In this document: positions 2 to 64,000 of the stretch, in pieces | How the letters are laid out: each line of letters begins with the position of its first letter | How positions within the stretch are numbered: the first letter of the stretch is position 1 | From: a bacterium | GTDB taxonomy: Bacteria > Chloroflexota > Anaerolineae > Aggregatilineales > Phototrophicaceae | Length of the DNA: 64,000 bases | Direction: 5' to 3' | Assembly (NCBI GenBank): GCA_033763335.1 | Contig: JANRKU010000016.1 | Location: forward strand, 6,534-70,533 | Position numbers and translations under genes: made by a program | Notes under the pieces: model-generated | Seen by the model: only the letters and a program-made list of their open reading frames with translations | What the model was told of the DNA's origin: nothing | Database searches by the model: none

Positions 2-793
2 TGCTGGGATTATGCCTTGCCCTGTGTCCCCAAACAACATTATTCTCCTCTGCTCAAAGAACGGGCAGAGGGTGGTTATCAATTGCCGAGCTATGCTGTG
101 TTATTTAACCCTGCTACCCGTCAAATTTTATTGGTGATGGATACCCTAGAAGCAGTTGCATTGGATGAAACCACATCTCTCACTGCCACGCTCACCCCTC
201 TGAACGCCGATTTTACGCCAATGACCAATACACCGCCTGAGAATGTGTTTAATGACTACACGAAAGAAATAATGCCTATATCACTCGAAAATCGGAATAA
301 TTTCCCGACGACACTCCAAATGGGCATAATAGAATTACCCATTTTGCCAGATGGGCTATATGCCCTCATAGGCGAATGGAATGGCGCACAATCGGCATTG
401 GCTGATGTGTGGCAAATCCGCAATTTTCGGTTTGGCGATAATCTACAAATCACCGATGCGATTTTACGCCGTGATGAAAATCGGGTCATTGTGCAATTGG
501 TCGGTGTGCCATTACGCGCCATCCCCACCCGTTATCATGTGGCGATATGGCTACGTGGGGAATCTGGTGAATTTCAGATGGATGTGAGTCCCACTATCCC
601 CACACATGATTGGGGCTTAGATGGGCGCTATGATATTTCTGCCCAATTTGGTAATTTGCCACGCGGAACATATAGCCTCTCGGTAGTCTGGTATGATGTT
701 TATGATGCTAATTTATCGCGTTTGAAAGGGTACGATGCGGATGATGTGCCATTGGGGGAAGATGTGGTGCTTATAAAAGATATGGATTTATGA
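2..793 (+). CDS. hypothetical protein, C-terminal part (gene begins upstream of the window)
   Basis: The frame is open from nt 2 to TGA at 791-793, with no stop before the TTG at 17 that the ORF track uses. I recognise no motif. It ends 18 nt before a palindromic hairpin. Confidence 0.5.
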   Translation, partial: CWDYALPCVPKQHYSPLLKERAEGGYQLPSYAVLFNPATRQILLVMDTLEAVALDETTSLTATLTPLNADFTPMTNTPPENVFNDYTKEIMPISLENRNNFPTTLQMGIIELPILPDGLYALIGEWNGAQSALADVWQIRNFRFGDNLQITDAILRRDENRVIVQLVGVPLRAIPTRYHVAIWLRGESGEFQMDVSPTIPTHDWGLDGRYDISAQFGNLPRGTYSLSVVWYDVYDANLSRLKGYDADDVPLGEDVVLIKDMDL

Positions 794-810
794 GTAGAGA
801 CATAATAAGC

Positions 811-842
811 ATGTATGGGCTTGCCATGGCAAGCCCGTACAT
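811..842. repeat. REP-like palindrome, family 1 (core GGGCTTGCCATGGCAAGCCC); possible bidirectional terminator
   Basis: ATGTATGGGCTTGCCATGGCAAGCCCGTACAT is a 32-nt near-perfect palindrome between convergent genes. It overlaps the stop codon at 842-844. The same core recurs at 31380, 51965 and 60952. Confidence 0.8.
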
Positions 843-2173
843 CATGGCGAAGGGGTTGCAGTATTTTCTGCCGTTGGCATAGATGTGTTTTCTGGCGTAA
901 TTTCGGGTATAGCGGTTGGTGTGGCTTCTGCATCAGAAGAGAGTATCACCGTCAAATTAGTAGGTAAAATCGAAATATCCTGCGCCAAAATATCACTACG
1001 ACCACTGGCAATTTGGGGGACAGTGTCATATGTGCCTGCACCCTTGCCATTCATATCCACAATAATACGAATATCTGTCGCCGTCATGGTGTCCAGAATC
1101 GTCTGCGCCCCTGTGACCAATGCGGTCACTTTATCGGGAATCAGGCGCGGGGTCAACCCCTCTGCCACGCCAATTATATCCACCGTCACATTATCAAATT
1201 GACGGGTGGTGGTTTGGGCATCAATATTGACCAAAACTGTCACCAATGGGTTGCCCAATACAGATAGTGCCACATCATCTGGCAAAACAAGCGGTACTTG
1301 AACCTCAAAATCGGCAGTTTGACCGCTTAAATCAATCAATTGGGTGCGGAGTGTGTCGGGCAAATTGGCTAAATTTTGTGGTGAACCAATCACAAATACG
1401 GTTTGTGGGTCATAACTCACCGATATAATCACATATCCGGGCGTGAGGGTTTGTGTATCCAAATCGGGCGCAATTGCCAATTCTCGTAAATCATCGCGCC
1501 GACGAATTTCGACCACCGTCTGTACCATTTGCGGGTCTAATATGACATCATTCACGGTGCGCCCATCGGCATCTACAGGCACAAGGCGAATATCACCTGT
1601 ATAGGTTTCGCGTTGGGCGCTCAAATCTAAAACAGCACGCGCCGCCACCACTTGTTGCACACGGCTCGATGCACCACTAACACTGACGGTTTGAATGTTA
1701 AATTGTGGCTCTGTGCGGGTAAAATTGGTCGGTGGCTCATTCGTATCTGCGATAAATGCCACCACAGGCACAGATTGCGATTGCATTTCCTCTATGGTGA
1801 CTGTAATTTGGCGCGGTTGGGTATCGGCAATGGCTCGCCGCGAAATATCCGTTTGGAGTTCAATAGTATGTGTTCCAGCAGGGAGTCCGCGCAAATCGGC
1901 TCGCACAATAATATCTTCGCGGGAAAGGATATTGATGATAGATTGTGAACTGCGTACCGTGACTTGTGCATAGCGAGTCGCTTGCTCAATCAACAACATG
2001 CCTTCATCTAATTCCACCAAAATTGGCACTTGAGTATACCCACGTTCAATGATGGGGTCAGATTGGGTGCTTGATGATACCCAAATAAAAAAGGCGAGTC
2101 CCAACGAGGCTAAAAACCATACGATATTATTGACGAGGGGATTCGGAATCCATGTAGATTGAGTCGTTCTCAT
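842..2173 (-). CDS. cdaR: YbbR-domain protein (CdaR-like regulator of diadenylate cyclase)
   Basis: An N-terminal TM helix (IVWFLASLGLAFFIWV) is followed by repeated YbbR-type modules (e.g. VTVRSSQSIINILSREDIIVRADLRGLPAGTHTIELQ). The gene is directly downstream of cdaA. The ATG at 2173 gives an ATGA stop/start overlap; the track start at 2200 would overlap cdaA by 31 nt. Confidence 0.8.
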   Translation of the reverse strand: MRTTQSTWIPNPLVNNIVWFLASLGLAFFIWVSSSTQSDPIIERGYTQVPILVELDEGMLLIEQATRYAQVTVRSSQSIINILSREDIIVRADLRGLPAGTHTIELQTDISRRAIADTQPRQITVTIEEMQSQSVPVVAFIADTNEPPTNFTRTEPQFNIQTVSVSGASSRVQQVVAARAVLDLSAQRETYTGDIRLVPVDADGRTVNDVILDPQMVQTVVEIRRRDDLRELAIAPDLDTQTLTPGYVIISVSYDPQTVFVIGSPQNLANLPDTLRTQLIDLSGQTADFEVQVPLVLPDDVALSVLGNPLVTVLVNIDAQTTTRQFDNVTVDIIGVAEGLTPRLIPDKVTALVTGAQTILDTMTATDIRIIVDMNGKGAGTYDTVPQIASGRSDILAQDISILPTNLTVILSSDAEATPTAIPEITPENTSMPTAENTATPSP

Positions 2174-6260: not shown

Positions 6261-6465
6261 TACCATGCCTTTATCGGGTGTTCTGCACAATATAAAGATA
6301 GTATAGCATCAATTACGCTATTTCGCATGAGGGGGATAAAAATCGCTCCCCACTCCATATACATCTTCATACCTATTTTAACGCAAAATTAGGATGATTC
6401 GCCACCATAAAATACAAAATGATGGGTAAAAGGGGCGCAAATTTAACTATGAAATTGCTCTTTTA

Positions 6466-6569
6466 CCTCACCCCCCTGCCCCCTTTCCAAATTGGAGAGG
6501 GGGAGAAAAGCATTTTGTAGGTCGGTTTAAGTCCCCTCGCCAGACTGGAGAGGGGATTTAGGGGTGAGG
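6466..6569. repeat. ~105-nt nested-hairpin intergenic element, copy A
   Basis: Outer stem CCTCACCCC...GGGGTGAGG encloses hairpin 1 (CCCCCTTTCCAAATTGGAGAGGGGG), a 29-nt spacer (AGAAAAGCATTTTGTAGGTCGGTTTAAGT) and hairpin 2 (CCCCTCGCCAGACTGGAGAGGGG). It lies 28 nt 3' of the polA stop. Confidence 0.85.
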
Positions 6570-6597
6570 TTTATTTCTTAAGTTGTCGCTTATAGTA

Positions 6598-9370: not shown

Positions 9371-9475
9371 CCTCACCCCTAAATCCCCTCTCCAAATTGG
9401 AGAGGGGACTTGAACCCATTTTATAGGTGGAATTTCTCCCCTTCTCCAGACTGGAGAAGGGGTTGGGGGATGAGG
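9371..9475. repeat. ~105-nt nested-hairpin intergenic element, copy B
   Basis: CCTCACCCC TAAAT CCCCTCTCCAAATTGGAGAGGGG ...CCATTTTATAGGTGG... CCCCTTCTCCAGACTGGAGAAGGGG TTG GGGGATGAGG. It lies 22 nt 3' of the stop of the 9498 gene and 25 nt upstream of the polA start. Confidence 0.85.
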
Positions 9476-11654: not shown

Positions 11655-13871
11655 TTACGGTGTGATGACAACTAATTCACTTTCATCGCCATTCAAAGTA
11701 ACACTGACATTCTTCACAATCCACCCTGTTTCGCCTTGATAGGTGATGGCATACCAGTCGCCATCAGGCGAAATTCCTATCACATCCACTGTCGCATCAA
11801 TGAGTGACCCCAAGCGTGTTGAATCGGATTGTGGGGCAGAACGCACCCATGCGCCCAATCGGTCAATCGTAACAGTCAAATTTCCCCCTACCACTGGTAA
11901 TAGGCTCTCATTGCCATTTAACTGTATGCTCGAATTTTTCACAATCCAAGCCAAATTGCCTTCAAATTCAATCTGATACCAATCGCCATCTGCTGATATA
12001 CCGATAACAGGGATAGTTTCGTTGATGATAGCACCCAACCGTGTTGATTCTGCGTCTGGCGCTTCCCTCACCCACGCTCCCAAACGGTCAATTGTGACAG
12101 TCATGCTTTGCGATTCTGCCACGACAACAGGCACAAGCGATACATCGCCTAAAAGGGTCACGCTAGATGTATTTTGTATCCAGCCAATTTCACCCTGATA
12201 TGGCACCCCATACCACTCGCCATCTGCCGACATACTAACGACTTCCACACTATCGTCAATGATAGACCCCAACCGTGAGGCACTAGAATCGGGTTGTGAG
12301 CGTACCCATGCCCCAAAGCGGTCAATTTGTAGCATAACGGTAGTAGATGCGGGTGTCTCAGTCGGTGGCATAGGTGTATAAGAGGGCAAGGGTGTATTGG
12401 TAACACGAATCGCCGTCTCAGTCGGTGGGACAGGTGTATAAGAGGGCAAAGGCGTATTGGTGATAAGAAACGGTGTTTCTGTCGGTGGTTGTGGTGTATA
12501 GGATGGTAAGGGTGTATTCGTCACACGCACAGGAATATCTGTCGGTATAATTTCTGGTGTTTCAGTCACTTCTGCGCTGATAGGTGTAGATGATGTGACA
12601 TTATCGCCCATCGTCTGTGCTGTTTGTGTGGCAAAAATAATTTCTGCAATGCGGGTCATTTCGATGACTACCGCCGTTTCGGTAATATCCACAGGGGTAA
12701 TAATTGGTTCATCGGTACGCAAAATCACGACAGAGGAATCATTCGTGCCTGTTGGGGAAAGCGCAATAATATCATCATTATCACCCGTGTTGTTGTTGGA
12801 TAGCAACAACACAATCACTGCCCCAATGAGGAGTAAAATAACCGCCGCCATCCCAAAAACCAACCCGCTATTGCGTTTTTGTGTAGGTGGCGGGGGATAC
12901 ATCCCACCAGCCCCCGTAGACATATATTGTGGTGGGGTTGCATAGGGTTGTGGCGCTGGTGCAAAATTTGCCTGTTGCTTAGGCGGAACTTTGAATACAA
13001 AAAAGTTGGTTTCTCCGCCCTTTTGTCCCTCAATGGCACTCTCAAAGGCTTGTGCGAATGCCGTACACGATTGAAAGCGGGCTTTAGGGTCTTTTGCCAA
13101 TGCCCGTGCAAGGACTAAATCCAACGCAGGGGGCAAATCTGTCCGCAAAATCGTGAGGGGAGTGGGCATTTCATGGAGGTGTTTGTTCAATAACTGAAAT
13201 GGGGTCGTTGCTTCAAATGGCTCACGCCCTGTCACAGCGATATAAGCCAATACCCCTAATGAATATTGGTCGGTGGCAGGAAAAACTTCATCCCCACTCC
13301 ATTGTTCGGGTGCCATATAGGTCGGTGTGCCAACCGCCATACCCGTCCCCGTGAGTTTATTGGTGGCATTCATCAATTTGGCGATACCAAAATCCACCAA
13401 ATACGAATTTCCCTGATTATCAAACATGACATTGCTGGTTTTTATATCCCGATGGATGACACCCCGATTATGGGCATAATCTAAGGCGCTGGCGAGTTCT
13501 CGCAATAATTTTGCCGTCTCACCGAGCGATGGCAATCCGCGATTATCGGCTTGTGCCTGATTAATCCGTTCTGCCAATGTGCCACCCGTGAGCAGGCGCA
13601 TGACCACATAACTAATCCCGCGTTGGGTGCCATAATCTACAATTGGGACGATATGGGGATGCTCTAATGCGGCAGATGTTTCGGCTTCGCGGGTGAATCT
13701 TTCGATATACCCCGGTTGTTGTGCCAGTGTGGATGGCAACACTTTGACCGCAACTTCGCGCTTGAGTGCCGTCTGAAATCCGCGATAAACCGACCCCATC
13801 CCCCCCACACCGAGCAATTCGCGTAATTCGTATTGTCCGAGCATCTGCCCTTTTAGGTTATCACTACCCAT
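11655..13871 (-). CDS. Ser/Thr protein kinase with one TM helix and an extracytoplasmic 3x SH3b-like domain
   Basis: Hanks kinase motifs GVGGMGSV, VAVKVL, HRDIKTSN, DFGIAK and YMAPEQ. TM helix GLVFGMAAVILLLIGAVIVLLLS. Three TNTPLPSYTPxPPTET repeats. Three ~75-aa repeats of the form IDRLGAWVRS.P...S.RLG..I......V.G.S.DG.WY...Y.G..GWI. Confidence 0.9.
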   Translation of the reverse strand: MGSDNLKGQMLGQYELRELLGVGGMGSVYRGFQTALKREVAVKVLPSTLAQQPGYIERFTREAETSAALEHPHIVPIVDYGTQRGISYVVMRLLTGGTLAERINQAQADNRGLPSLGETAKLLRELASALDYAHNRGVIHRDIKTSNVMFDNQGNSYLVDFGIAKLMNATNKLTGTGMAVGTPTYMAPEQWSGDEVFPATDQYSLGVLAYIAVTGREPFEATTPFQLLNKHLHEMPTPLTILRTDLPPALDLVLARALAKDPKARFQSCTAFAQAFESAIEGQKGGETNFFVFKVPPKQQANFAPAPQPYATPPQYMSTGAGGMYPPPPTQKRNSGLVFGMAAVILLLIGAVIVLLLSNNNTGDNDDIIALSPTGTNDSSVVILRTDEPIITPVDITETAVVIEMTRIAEIIFATQTAQTMGDNVTSSTPISAEVTETPEIIPTDIPVRVTNTPLPSYTPQPPTETPFLITNTPLPSYTPVPPTETAIRVTNTPLPSYTPMPPTETPASTTVMLQIDRFGAWVRSQPDSSASRLGSIIDDSVEVVSMSADGEWYGVPYQGEIGWIQNTSSVTLLGDVSLVPVVVAESQSMTVTIDRLGAWVREAPDAESTRLGAIINETIPVIGISADGDWYQIEFEGNLAWIVKNSSIQLNGNESLLPVVGGNLTVTIDRLGAWVRSAPQSDSTRLGSLIDATVDVIGISPDGDWYAITYQGETGWIVKNVSVTLNGDESELVVITP
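12357..12536. repeat. in-frame 60-bp tandem repeat (3 units) inside the kinase gene
   Basis: Units start at about 12357, 12417 and 12477 (GTCTCAGTCGGTGG.AYAGGTGTATAAGAGGGCAARGG.GTATTGGT...). They encode the Pro/Thr-rich TNTPLPSYTP.PPTET linker repeats. Confidence 0.85.
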
Positions 13872-31332: not shown

Positions 31333-31360
31333 GTAAGGGCGCAACCTGTTGCGCCCTTAC
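31333..31360. repeat. REP-like palindrome, family 2 (GTAAGGGCGCAAC-N-GTTGCGCCCTTAC)
   Basis: GTAAGGGCGCAACCTGTTGCGCCCTTAC, 21 nt after the permease stop. Related copies occur at 54530, 43002, 19094 and, in degenerate form, 39428. Confidence 0.8.
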
Positions 31361-31379
31361 ATGTTACCCGCTTATTCGT

Positions 31380-31407
31380 GTAGGGGCTTGCCATGGCAAG
31401 CCCCTAC
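31380..31407. repeat. REP-like palindrome, family 1
   Basis: GTAGGGGCTTGCCATGGCAAGCCCCTAC is a perfect 28-nt palindrome, 25 nt 3' of the glgP stop. Confidence 0.8.
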
Positions 31408-42851: not shown

Positions 42852-42869
42852 TATTTAGATAGCAAAATC

Positions 42870-42981
42870 ATCCCCTATCCCCCCGCCCCCTTTCCCCATT
42901 TCATGGAGAAAGGGGGTGAAACCTATTTTTAAGGTTGGTTTTAGCCCCTCTCCACAGCGTGGGGAGGGGTTGGGGTGGGGA
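42870..42981. repeat. ~105-nt nested-hairpin intergenic element, copy C (diverged)
   Basis: ATCCCCTATCCCC..CCCCCTTTCCCCAT-TTC-ATGGAGAAAGGGGG..CTATTTTTAAGGTTGGTTTTAG..CCCCTCTCCAC-AGC-GTGGGGAGGGG..GGGGTGGGGAT. It begins 18 nt 3' of the NERD gene stop. Confidence 0.75.
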
Positions 42982-43001
42982 TAAAAGCCTTAAGTTGCCG
43001 T

Positions 43002-43029
43002 GTACGGGCGCAACATATTGCGCCCGCAT
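43002..43029. repeat. REP-like palindrome, family 2 variant
   Basis: GTACGGGCGCAACATATTGCGCCCGCAT, with stem CGGGCGCAA/TTGCGCCCG. Confidence 0.7.
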
Positions 43030-51964: not shown

Positions 51965-51992
51965 GTAAAGGCTTGCCATGGCAAGCCCTTAC
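51965..51992. repeat. REP-like palindrome, family 1
   Basis: GTAAAGGCTTGCCATGGCAAGCCCTTAC, 3' of the PPIase gene. Confidence 0.8.
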
Positions 51993-54529: not shown

Positions 54530-54557
54530 GTAAGGGCGCAACATGTTGCGCCCTTAC
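54530..54557. repeat. REP-like palindrome, family 2
   Basis: GTAAGGGCGCAACATGTTGCGCCCTTAC is a perfect 28-nt palindrome between convergent genes. Confidence 0.8.
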
Positions 54558-60951: not shown

Positions 60952-60979
60952 GTAAGGGCTTGCCATGGCAAGCCCTTTA
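60952..60979. repeat. REP-like palindrome, family 1
   Basis: GTAAGGGCTTGCCATGGCAAGCCCTTTA, 22 nt 3' of the stop at 61002. Confidence 0.75.
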
Positions 60980-61910: not shown

Positions 61911-63938
61911 ATGCAGTTTCCAAATAACAATAATAAACCACGCAAGGATGACGACCCGCAGTCTGATAATCCACCCCCGCCCCAACAAGATTGGCGCAAG
62001 TGGCTTTGGCCCGCCTTAATCATTTTTGGCTTGACTTGGGTCTTTTTGATAATGATGGGTGGCACCCCAACTGCTGGTGGTGGCACAACGGTTGATTATT
62101 CAGTAATCCTTGACCAAGCGAAAAACAATAACATTCAAAAAATCACCTTTCGCGGGGGAGAAGCCTTTGGGTCTTTTATTAGCCCCATCCGTACTAGCAG
62201 TGGGCAACCTGTTACCAATTTTACAGTCGTTGTTCCAACAGCAACCGCACAAGAACAACTCCTCATCCCCCTTAATGAGGCGGGCGGCGCAACGATTGAT
62301 TTCGATGGTAATGATACCTCTAACCTATTGGTAATCTTCCTCAACCTCGCCCCATTATTGCTCATCATCGGCTTTTTGATATGGACGGCACGCCGCGCCC
62401 AACGTCAAATGGGAAGTGCGATGGGTTTTGGTCGCACACAAGCCCGTGAATACACAGTAGAACGTCCACAAGTCACATTTAACGATGTGGCAGGACAAGA
62501 TGCCGCCAAAGTCGAATTGACCGAGATTGTAGATTTCCTAAAAGAACCAGAAAAATATATCGCGTTGGGCGCACGGATTCCGCGCGGTGTATTGCTCATC
62601 GGACCTCCAGGGACGGGTAAGACCCTCTTGGCGCGTGCTGTTGCTGGTGAAGCCCATGTATCATTCTTTAGTATCGCCGCTTCTGAATTTGTAGAAATGT
62701 TCGTTGGTGTGGGTGCGTCTCGTGTGCGTGATTTATTCAAACGCGCCCGTGATAACGCCCCTAGCATCGTATTCATAGACGAAATTGATGCGGTTGGTCG
62801 CCAACGTGGTGCTGGCTTGGGTGGTGGGCATGATGAACGTGAGCAAACCCTCAACCAAATGCTGGCAGAAATGGATGGCTTTGACCAAACCGAGAGCGTC
62901 ATCATTATGGCGGCGACCAATCGCCACGATGTATTAGACCCTGCCCTATTGCGTCCGGGACGCTTTGACCGTCAAGTAACGGTTGGCTTGCCCGATAGAA
63001 AAGGTCGTCTGGAAATTTTGAAGATTCACACACGCGGAAAACCGCTCGATTCCAATGTGAATTTAGAAGATTTAGCACGCGGTACAATCGGATTTTCTGG
63101 CGCGGATTTATCGAATCTGAGCAACGAAGCCGCCCTCAATGCCGCCCGTCGCAACGCCAAACGCATCTCCATGCGCGACTTTTCTAACGCCTTTGACCGC
63201 ATTGTATTGGGTACAGAAAGCCCGCCGTTATCTGACCCCAATGAACGCAAAGTGGTTGCCTATCACGAAGCGGGTCATGCGGTGGTCTCGGCATTGTTGC
63301 CCAACAGTGACCCTGTGTTAAAAGTGACGATTGTCCCACGCGGGCAAGCATTGGGTGTGACGGCATACATGCCCGAATCTGACCGCAGAAATTACTCGCG
63401 TGCCTATCTGTATACCAAAATCATGACCTTGCTCGGTGGACGCGCCGCCGAAGAAATCGTCATCAAAGAAGTGACCACAGGGGCAGAAAATGACCTGCGC
63501 CGTGCCACCGACCTCGCTCGGCGGATGGTCTCCCAATTTGGCATGAGTGAAAGTTTTGGTCTGCTCAATTTTGGTGATGATGAACGGCAACCGTTCTTAG
63601 GCTATGCCCTCTCACAAGGCAAGAGTTATAGCGAAGAAACCGCCTCAGAAATTGATGCCGAAGTGCGCCGTGTGATTAAACAAGCCCATGAGCAAACGAT
63701 TGCCTTGCTCACCGAAAATAAAGACAAACTCATTGCCCTCGCAGAAGCCCTTTTGGTTCAAGAAATTATTGAACAAGAAGAAATGTTGCGAATTTTGGAC
63801 ATGGACACAGACCCACGCTTCGGCAAAAACGGCAATGCCCATTTCTCATTGGGGAAAATACCAAAAACCGATGATGTTTCAGAAACACCATCAGCCCAAA
63901 CACCTCCCCCAACCGTCACAGAAGCAGATGCTTCTTAG
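61911..63938 (+). CDS. ftsH: ATP-dependent zinc metalloprotease FtsH
   Basis: Two TM helices, Walker A GPPGTGKT, Walker [10 protein letters not shown], an SRH region, and the zinc site HEAGHAV. Confidence 0.97.
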
Positions 63939-63969
63939 ATAACAACTTAACGATAAAATCGCTCTTTGA

Positions 63970-64000
63970 CCTCACCCCCCTGCCCCCTCTCCAAATTGGA
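63970..64000. repeat. ~105-nt nested-hairpin element, copy D (cut by the window end)
   Basis: CCTCACCCCCCTGCCCCCTCTCCAAATTGGA matches the first 31 nt of copy A at 30 positions. It begins 31 nt 3' of the ftsH stop. Confidence 0.75.

Follow-up and report, generated by a model that had tools for sequence, protein, structure and literature searches.

The four hairpin-rich elements that stand just 3' of genes in the window (the whole 64,000-nt stretch analysed here, C16:6534-70533 of the source genome G000) are probably copies of a selfish, non-coding palindromic DNA repeat that is partly packaged in a miniature inverted-repeat transposable element (MITE) of the IS4 family of insertion sequences (IS); we put the probability of this reading at about three in four. 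G000 is a 5.02-Mb draft of 186 contigs with 46.5% G+C; other G numbers refer to comparison genomes and C numbers to contigs. The initial annotation had described four copies (A to D; Table 1), built of an outer stem, two hairpins and a spacer with a conserved core, and each beginning 18-31 nt from a stop codon. Full-length alignment bore out both the coordinates and the architecture, and the measured distances to the stop codon are 28, 22, 18 and 31 nt for copies A, B, C and D, respectively. The repeated unit is longer than the coordinates first given, with conserved arms on both sides, and copy D continues past the window end to C16:70606 (the would-be window position 64073), with 93% identity to copy A in blastn. 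Copies A and B lie behind minus-strand genes and copies C and D behind plus-strand genes, so that the two pairs do not have the same sense with respect to the gene they follow; in addition, the polA start is only 25 nt downstream of copy B.

The core of about 104 nt is an inverted doublet of one tagged G/C hairpin module, CCTCACCCC-N2-5-CCCCTCTCC...GGAGAGGGG, in which a 9-nt tag (CCTCACCCC) is followed, after 2-5 nt, by an 11-14-bp G/C hairpin (CCCCTCTCC...GGAGAGGGG). What had been described as the outer stem is the pairing of the two tags; each module contributes one hairpin, and the spacer between them contains GTAGG. In subfamily C, a C.A mismatch in hairpin 1 (17 copies) and a U.G pair in hairpin 2 (20 copies) occupy mirrored positions, which indicates that both hairpins are inverted copies of one asymmetric hairpin. 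This layout is the doublet design of REPINs, which are built from repetitive extragenic palindromic (REP) sequences, and the inverted-doublet repeat unit that characterizes REP and REPIN elements is present. A blastn search of G000 with copies A to C returned 544 matches that merged into 210 loci, 113 of which are at least 90 nt long, and these full-length copies are found on both strands (63 plus, 50 minus). For 42 of the loci, a contig end of the draft is no more than 300 nt away; the repeat thus breaks the assembly, and all copy counts are lower bounds. The module pattern GGAGAGGGG-N2-8-GGGGTGAGG had 134 exact matches in G000 and none for the reversed control, and at least four subfamilies can be told apart among the full copies (Table 1).

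The substitutions described earlier as stem-preserving are real, although they represent few events, which divide the subfamilies. Pair counts for both hairpins over 45 non-redundant copies gave 94.9% paired cells compared with 92.0% in shuffles and 36 cells changed on both sides compared with 9.5 expected, values that none of 500 shuffles reached. Clean covariation occurs at three pairs, 29-48 (CG 22, UA 21), 23-55 (CG 30, UA 7) and 94-113 (CG 36, UA 6), and by eye the closing pair of hairpin 2 shows all four Watson-Crick forms across the subfamilies (CCAG/CTGG, CCAC/GTGG, CCAT/ATGG and CCAA/TTGG). Copy A also folds more stably than shuffled sequences, both as DNA (-29 kcal/mol, z = -6.0) and with its other strand as RNA (-52 kcal/mol, z = -4.9). 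Selection on structure, as suggested by the initial annotation, is a reasonable interpretation of this pattern, but the pattern is equally expected of a DNA hairpin that needs to be recognized for its mobilization.

The conserved flanks shared by subfamily-A copies read ...hairpin-CATGTGTAGCAACTTAACGATAAAATCnCTnTTTTA before the core and TTGATTTCTTAAGTTGCAGTATATG-hairpin after it, and the same arm ends bound a single 1.31-kb element on another contig (G000:C136:14857-16169). Its terminal inverted repeats (TIRs) of 23 nt, GCCCCATATGTAGCAACTTAAGG and CCTTAAGTTGCTACACATGGGGC, are separated by 1275 nt, and a single open reading frame (ORF) encodes a protein of 432 aa that matches transposase profiles (NF033592, 141.2 bits at a cut-off of 115; PF01609, E = 4.7e-16). 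Judged by these profiles, the element is an IS of the IS4 family with a predicted DDE transposase; it is present as a single copy in the G000 assembly, and its ends start with 5'-CAT, as is typical of the IS231 and ISH8 subgroups of this family (PMC2266710). The ends of the arm-bearing copies (CATGTGTAGCAACTTAA...) match those of this IS: the consensus reads CATGTGTAGCAACTTAAC and CATATACTGCAACTTAAG in the copies and CATATGTAGCAACTTAAG and CATGTGTAGCAACTTAAG in the IS, the left end agrees, and the right-end consensus of the copies is CATATACTGCAA. With a simple pattern, both arms were found on 17 subfamily-A cores and one arm on 16; full or shortened arms are also present on some subfamily-C cores, and none on subfamilies B and A'. 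Terminal inverted repeats matching an autonomous IS are therefore a feature of the long form of subfamily A and of some subfamily-C copies; bare cores, to which subfamilies B and A' and the majority of subfamily C belong, do not have them. In addition, the elements are non-coding, present in multiple copies (113 full copies) and well below 300 bp in length, with a core of 104 nt and a long form of about 165 nt. The long-form subfamily-A copies are thus MITEs, of which copies A and D of the window are decayed examples, and about 17-33 subfamily-A cores together with some subfamily-C cores are packaged in a MITE of about 165 nt. Comparison with congeners placed the stretch that comprises the left arm of copy A within an insertion specific to G000.

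The neighbours of the arm-bearing copies are REP hairpins. G000 contains 591 perfect REP-type hairpins of the form GG...CC, the commonest being GGGCGCAACatGTTGCGCCC with 177 copies, and their usual outer tags are GTAA/GTAG and TTAC/CTAC. In the arm-bearing copies each IS-type end abuts the foot of a complete hairpin (...GCCC|CATG... and ...TATG|GGGC...). Four copies in G000 (on C77, C157, C92 and C5; Table 1) are flanked on either side by the same hairpin variant in direct orientation, the asymmetric loop included, and with one further copy in G002 that has the same hairpin on both sides, five copies in all show a repeated hairpin of 18-20 bp. The IS on C136 is likewise situated between two GGGCGCAACATGTTGCGCCC hairpins, its flanking direct repeat being the 20-bp hairpin. 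At the sites orthologous to C77, G004 and G005 lack the element and have just one REP, whose stem is the same; this is the empty site. A homologue of the IS in G016 (33% identity; L156, G016:C240, 815-2278) shows the arrangement GTAG-hairpin|CATATGCACCAAGTTAAG...CTTAACTTGGTGCATATG|hairpin-CTAC; its transposase gene is interrupted by one in-frame TGA, and a further REP is located 18 nt upstream. At C92 we also noted that the flanking REPs (at 12893 and 13068) differ only by one compensatory pair, G3-C18 on the left and A3-T18 on the right.

REP hairpins and cores are also nested in the opposite sense. Nine cores contain a GTAG-tagged REP in their spacer, usually GTAGGGACATGATATATCATGTCC and in two cores (on C157 and C69) GTAGGGGCGCAACATGTTGCGCCCTTAC. 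At least seven of them, from separate loci, have one REP in common and in an identical place, which indicates that the composite of core and REP has itself been copied. Cores and GTAG-tagged REPs therefore exchange insertions, with REPs residing within core spacers and cores within REPs.

In the four congeners that keep synteny (G001, G002, G004 and G005), the corresponding sites contain neither copy A nor copy B; where copy B would stand, three of the four have a REP hairpin instead. Copy C together with the REP to its right is absent in G004, G001 and G005. The 3' end of ftsH, where copy D is located (window 63930-64000; orthologous sites L126-L128), is a hot spot at which the hairpins differ between genomes: in G002 there is a related variant with a REP in place of hairpin 2, in G001 just one module-like hairpin, accompanied by A- and T-runs, and in G004 a hairpin that resembles an ordinary terminator. 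The presence/absence polymorphism between relatives that is characteristic of MITEs is thus evident. With respect to gene context, for which a rough ORF-based gene call was used, 76 clear cases comprised 53 copies between tandem, 16 between convergent and 7 between divergent genes, compared with 68%, 16% and 15% of intergenic regions genome-wide; gaps between divergent genes make up 15% of intergenic regions and, by length, 25% of intergenic DNA, but contain 9% of the cores. The median distance to the nearest upstream stop codon is 36 nt, and with respect to the upstream gene the copies are oriented at random, 37 in the same and 32 in the opposite direction.

Fourteen of the 113 copies (approximately 12%) overlap long ORFs. 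The most instructive case is the gene for HypF (C39:19256-21838), in which three copies, each of about 41 aa (PLTPSPQGGEGE...FSMQWGKGAGGIGD), lie in frame and without stop codons. Its orthologues in G005 and G001 contain, at all three positions, versions that have diverged and in some cases include nested REPs, and none of the three copies is present in the orthologues of the congener G003 and of G007, a member of another genus. Cores hence appear at new intergenic sites, and within genes if they are free of stop codons and keep the frame. In-frame, stop-free insertions that are absent from orthologues are the hallmark of the Rickettsia palindromic elements (RPEs), and the same behaviour is seen here in HypF. 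The element was also observed within large ORFs of C72, C171, C32 and C184, of which three resemble membrane proteins by inspection.

Of the two readings offered by the initial annotation, a structured RNA element or a MITE-like mobile element, the latter is supported by copy number, by empty sites, by an IS with matching ends, by targets that appear duplicated in five copies and by copies within genes; the search of the genome and its relatives recommended there indeed revealed many more copies on both strands. As a mechanism we propose that the IS4-family DDE transposase would move the MITE in trans, choosing REP hairpins (GGG-N14-CCC) as targets. The two strands would be cut at the two feet of the hairpin, and repair would then duplicate the whole 18-20 bp. 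IS231A prefers targets of the form GGG-N5-CCC, which become duplicated upon insertion. By analogy, the REP target GGG-N14-CCC would represent this rule lengthened by one helical turn. The location of the copies just 3' of genes and the conservation of their hairpins might reflect this preference for REP targets, purifying selection acting on harmful sites and the necessity of remaining recognizable, and would not require an RNA function.

Several observations weigh against this reading. Of 41 genomes, G000 alone yielded the IS, the 40 relatives containing nothing closer than homologues of 33-35% identity in G016 and G014, although G002 and G004 (both incomplete assemblies) hold arm-bearing copies. 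The right end of the MITE differs from that of the IS at 4 of the outer 12 bases. IS4-family elements usually duplicate about 10 bp (PMC2266710), and this family norm is not observed at C136, where the repeat is a 20-bp hairpin. The hairpins flanking the G016 IS are alike in their stems but differ in the loop, and about 10 REP-flanked copies have unlike hairpin variants, the right one being mostly of the GGGCGCAAC type, as beside the IS; for these, later REP turnover, recombination between copies or a right hairpin travelling with the element must be assumed. A systematic test for duplication of the left and right hairpins was not significant, with only four pairs and a right-end pattern that was too strict, and the automatic palindrome picker used for flanking hairpins made many spurious calls. 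At the bare cores, flanks aligned by eye showed no consistent target duplication (TGA, CAA and TAAA fit single copies only), and the HypF junctions are too diverged to set insertion boundaries. Finally, a search for a mover of the bare cores (those of subfamilies B and A' and the majority in C) revealed no longer ORF-bearing element with CCTCACCCC/GGGGTGAGG ends in G000, only ordinary genes between two copies. Large repeats are few in this assembly.

Element matches were obtained in 27 of 41 genomes of the order. Across Chloroflexota, 99 of 301 genomes, from 62 of 172 genera, contain the module, with as many as 751 matches in a single genome and none for the reversed control. Beyond the phylum, exact matches occur in Bacteroidales/Prolixibacteraceae, Thermoanaerobaculia and Sericytochromatia. 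In other genomes we found a single hairpin with both tags (about 45-65 nt, including paired minus/plus matches 6 nt apart) as well as a lone tag with a hairpin and no partner, and copies in Caldilineaceae share the double-hairpin design, their spacer containing a hairpin tagged GTAG. We regard the module as old; it is widespread in Chloroflexota and extends to other phyla. Viruses were rejected as carriers, as only 7 of about 2.9 million viral contigs matched. While MITE, REP-like and RPE-like behaviour are known, we found no description in the searchable literature of the module superfamily, of its packaging in an IS4-family MITE or of the proposed whole-hairpin duplication in REP targets; the hairpin sequence used as a literature search string returned only unrelated eukaryotic papers. 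Tentatively, and with more doubt than confidence, one may ask whether the CCTCACCCC-tagged module is a third cross-phylum REP-like superfamily beside those tagged GTAG and CGTC, which would attain hundreds of copies per genome without Y1 transposases or the single-strand nuclease Ssn and would hence be mobilized by a class of enzymes with no established link to repeats of this kind, and whether a clade of IS4 transposases recognizes REP hairpins or cruciforms and cuts at both feet, leaving a whole-hairpin duplication of about 20 bp, twice the family norm.

A candidate for mobilizing a REPIN-like inverted doublet is a Y1 HUH transposase, either a REP-associated tyrosine transposase (RAYT) or a TIRYT, which would recognize tag and hairpin and move the core as single-stranded DNA, as a REP/REPIN-type or 'TIR-repeat' element. 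The tag GGGGTGAG is compatible with GGGGWSAS, a motif reported from the inverted repeats on either side of TIRYT genes (PMC3733652), GTAG is found in the spacer, where REPs insert, and G000 itself encodes an intact RAYT-like gene on C186 and two remnants, each flanked by REPs (Table 1). In the order-level sample, moreover, RAYT-like hits were obtained in each of the 15 element-rich genomes, and the 11 genomes that lack such a hit contain 0-6 matches (P = 0.0024). Against such a mover, not one of about 30 inspected Y1 or RAYT-like loci is directly flanked by the module; GTAG-tagged REPs or other repeats are found instead. Three REP variants of G000 each have their own RAYT-like gene, the module tag is CCTCACCCC, with GTAG restricted to spacer and arms, and neither the flanking by nor the co-occurrence with RAYT genes that define REP/REPIN-RAYT systems holds for the module. 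Furthermore, neither Y1_Tnp nor RAYT-like hits were obtained in the genomes with the highest copy numbers, G139 (751 matches), G100, G088, G339 and G216, and all of them except G339 are 96-100% complete. We therefore consider mobilization of the core by a Y1 transposase improbable, and rejected it: the RAYT loci of G000 and about 25 in relatives are not directly flanked by the module, and the IS200-type TnpA gene of G000 on C52 is bordered by another repeat. This repeat belongs to a different family (GGGCATCGCTAGAGGTTGAAAACCTCTAGC...TAAAGTCCACTAAAGGGACT), and a relative of it, ending in TAATTTTAGTGTCG, is fused to the foot of element hairpins at 7 places in lieu of the CCTCACCCC tag (the coordinates listed with the two repeats are C52:5700-7000, which includes the TnpA gene, and also C7, C40, C71, C125, C127 and C129).

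The other reading offered by the initial annotation, a structured RNA in the 3' untranslated region (UTR) that is transcribed with the upstream gene and acts as terminator, as a block to 3' exonucleases (and thus as mRNA stabilizer) or as small RNA precursor, with its hairpins maintained by selection on RNA structure, is less probable still. The short distance of the cores from the upstream stop codon, their slight depletion between divergent genes, their strong folding, the tolerance of G-U at several stem positions and the single related hairpin with a T-run at the 3' end of ftsH in G001 would all be in line with it, and REPs and MITEs elsewhere affect mRNA stability (PMC3733652). In contrast, the random orientation relative to the upstream gene, the orthologous sites in congeners that have no copies and the 14 copies inside ORFs are not what would be expected of a dedicated 3'-UTR RNA. 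Rfam covariance models gave no match in the window at the gathering score (best sub-threshold score at most 16.5 bits), and no intrinsic terminator (a G+C-rich hairpin followed by a T-run on the transcribed strand) was called at copies A, B and C. As the C.A mismatch of hairpin 1 mirrors the U.G pair of hairpin 2, one of the two hairpins is mismatched on either strand, and there is no transcript strand on which both are intact. An RNA element also leaves no place for the IS-type ends and the apparent target duplications. A secondary effect of the copies on transcripts may nevertheless exist. Least probable of all, and rejected, is that the module is an Ssn-related motif (SRM) targeted by a small single-strand nuclease of the GIY-YIG type, like that of the Neisseria NTS/SsnA system: Ssn-hairpin pairs are diverse (PMC11893778), and G339 and G000 have GIY-YIG ORFs of 96 aa and 209 aa, but the SRM pattern HGTCWY...RNCYNB is not matched, its head HGTCWY (PMC11893778) being missing from the module, and in five high-copy genomes (G139, G100, G088, G007 and G028) the sole GIY-YIG hit is an ORF of about 560-650 aa, a size expected for UvrC, and no small one was found.

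Table 1. Window copies and their parts, subfamilies, flanking hairpin variants and REP-associated features of G000 (plain positions refer to the window; C numbers denote contigs)
Feature	Location	Strand	Description
Copy A, subfamily A core	6466..6569	+	CCTCACCCC tag, hairpin 1, GTAGG spacer, hairpin 2, GGGGTGAGG tag
Left arm of copy A, decayed	6432..6465	+	Half REP hairpin (GGGGCGCAA) fused to inner IS4-type end (AATTTAAC), then A/T linker
Right arm of copy A	6570..6587	+	Linker and inner part of IS4-type right end (CTTAAGTTG); outer part decayed
Copy B, subfamily B	9371..9475	+	CCTCACCCCTAAATCCCC...GGGGGATGAGG; bare core without IS-type arms
Copy C, subfamily C	42870..42981	+	CCCCTATCCCC...GGGGTGGGG; hairpin tips changed
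Left-arm remnant of copy C	42856..42871	+	TAGATAGCAAAATCAT, shortened IS-type end; full ...GTAGCAACTTAAC... arm in other subfamily-C copies
Right IS4-type end of copy C	42989..43005	+	CTTAAGTTGCCGTGTAC
REP hairpin abutting right end of copy C	43006..43025		GGGCGCAACATATTGCGCCC
Copy D, subfamily A core	63970..64000	+	Cut by window end
Left arm of copy D	63939..63969	+	ATAACAACTTAACGATAAAATCGCTCTTTGA, partly decayed IS4-type left end and linker
Subfamily A			Ends CCTCACCCCCCTG...GGGGTGAGG; hairpin 1 CCCCCTCTCCAAATTGGAGAGGGGG
Subfamily A'			Left end CCTCATCCCC...; hairpin 1 CCCCTTCTCCAGTCTGGAGAAGGGG
Subfamily B			Ends CCTCACCCCTAAATCCCC...GGGGGATGAGG; hairpin 1 CCCCTCTCCA-loop-TGGAGAGGGG
Subfamily C			Ends CCCCTATCCCCCC...GGGGTGGGG; hairpin 1 CCCCCTTTCCCCATTGCATGGAGAAAGGGGG
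Flanking hairpin variant	C77		GCATGGTCATCATGC; only 2 genomic occurrences, both flanking the element
Flanking hairpin variant	C157		TATGATACATCATGTCC; only 2 genomic occurrences, both flanking the element
Flanking hairpin variant	C92		CATGACCTATCATG; 4 genomic occurrences, 2 flanking the element
Flanking hairpin variant	C5		GCGCAACCAGTTGCGC; 5 genomic occurrences, 2 flanking the element
Cores with nested REP (examples)	C17:8591-8717, C80:15127-15254, C2:26876-26999, C157:~97759		
REPs in the window	811-842, 31333-31407, 43006-43025, 51965-51992, 54530-54557, 60952-60979		
Intact RAYT-like gene	C186:~376-920		Bracketed by GGGCATGACATGTCATGCCC REPs
RAYT-like remnants	C86:15308-15478, C176:5907-6074		Bracketed by GGGCTTGCC and GGGCGCAAC variants

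These findings explain a conspicuous, assembly-breaking repeat of a third of the sampled Chloroflexota genomes, which also creates many spurious ORFs of the 'PLS..GEG..GVR' type in annotation. They provide a concrete pair of one IS4-family transposase and its mini-transposon, with a target defined by structure (REP hairpins) and what appears to be an unusually long duplication. They further illustrate that palindromic repeats are tolerated in frame in enzymes such as HypF outside Rickettsia, and that repeat-rich genomes can be without both enzyme families now linked to hairpin repeats (RAYT and Ssn).

Among known systems, the long form can be compared with IS231-MIC231 and other IS-derived MITEs of the IS4 family (cited in PMC2266710), which are likewise short and non-coding, bounded by the terminal repeats of a resident IS4-family element with 5'-CAT, present in many copies per IS, and characterized by polymorphic sites and a hairpin-rich interior; their targets are duplicated, as appears to be the case in five copies here. 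In contrast to these, the apparent duplication comprises a whole REP hairpin of 18-20 bp and not some 10 bp, insertion is into a different repeat family, the GTAG-tagged REPs, and the interior is an independently spreading palindromic module that is also found without IS ends. With REP/REPIN-RAYT systems and the mosaics of bacterial interspersed mosaic elements (BIMEs; PMC3116915, PMC3733652) the repeat shares the inverted doublet of a tagged hairpin, the hundreds of copies, the mostly intergenic location between tandem or convergent genes, the mosaic structure with other palindromes and the compensatory stem changes between subfamilies. It differs from them in its tag (CCTCACCCC/GGGGTGAGG, not GTAG or CGTC), in that no RAYT gene is flanked by the module and in that most of the richest genomes have no Y1 transposase hits.

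Palindromic repeats that are inserted in frame in genes, which stay open, and that are absent from the orthologues of relatives have been described as RPEs (PMC3733652), and HypF with its three copies and several large putative membrane-protein ORFs (by inspection) with one copy each show the same behaviour. Unlike RPEs, the repeat belongs to another sequence family and another host phylum, its copies are mostly intergenic, and part of them is tied to an identifiable IS. Finally, the use of a REP palindrome as insertion site at a fixed position is shared with the REP-targeting elements ISPsy8, ISPpu9/10, ISRm22 and IS1397 (PMC1525189). These break the REP and are associated with direct repeats of 0-6 bp, whereas the junctions observed here lie at the feet of the hairpin, which is intact on both sides of the element in five copies.

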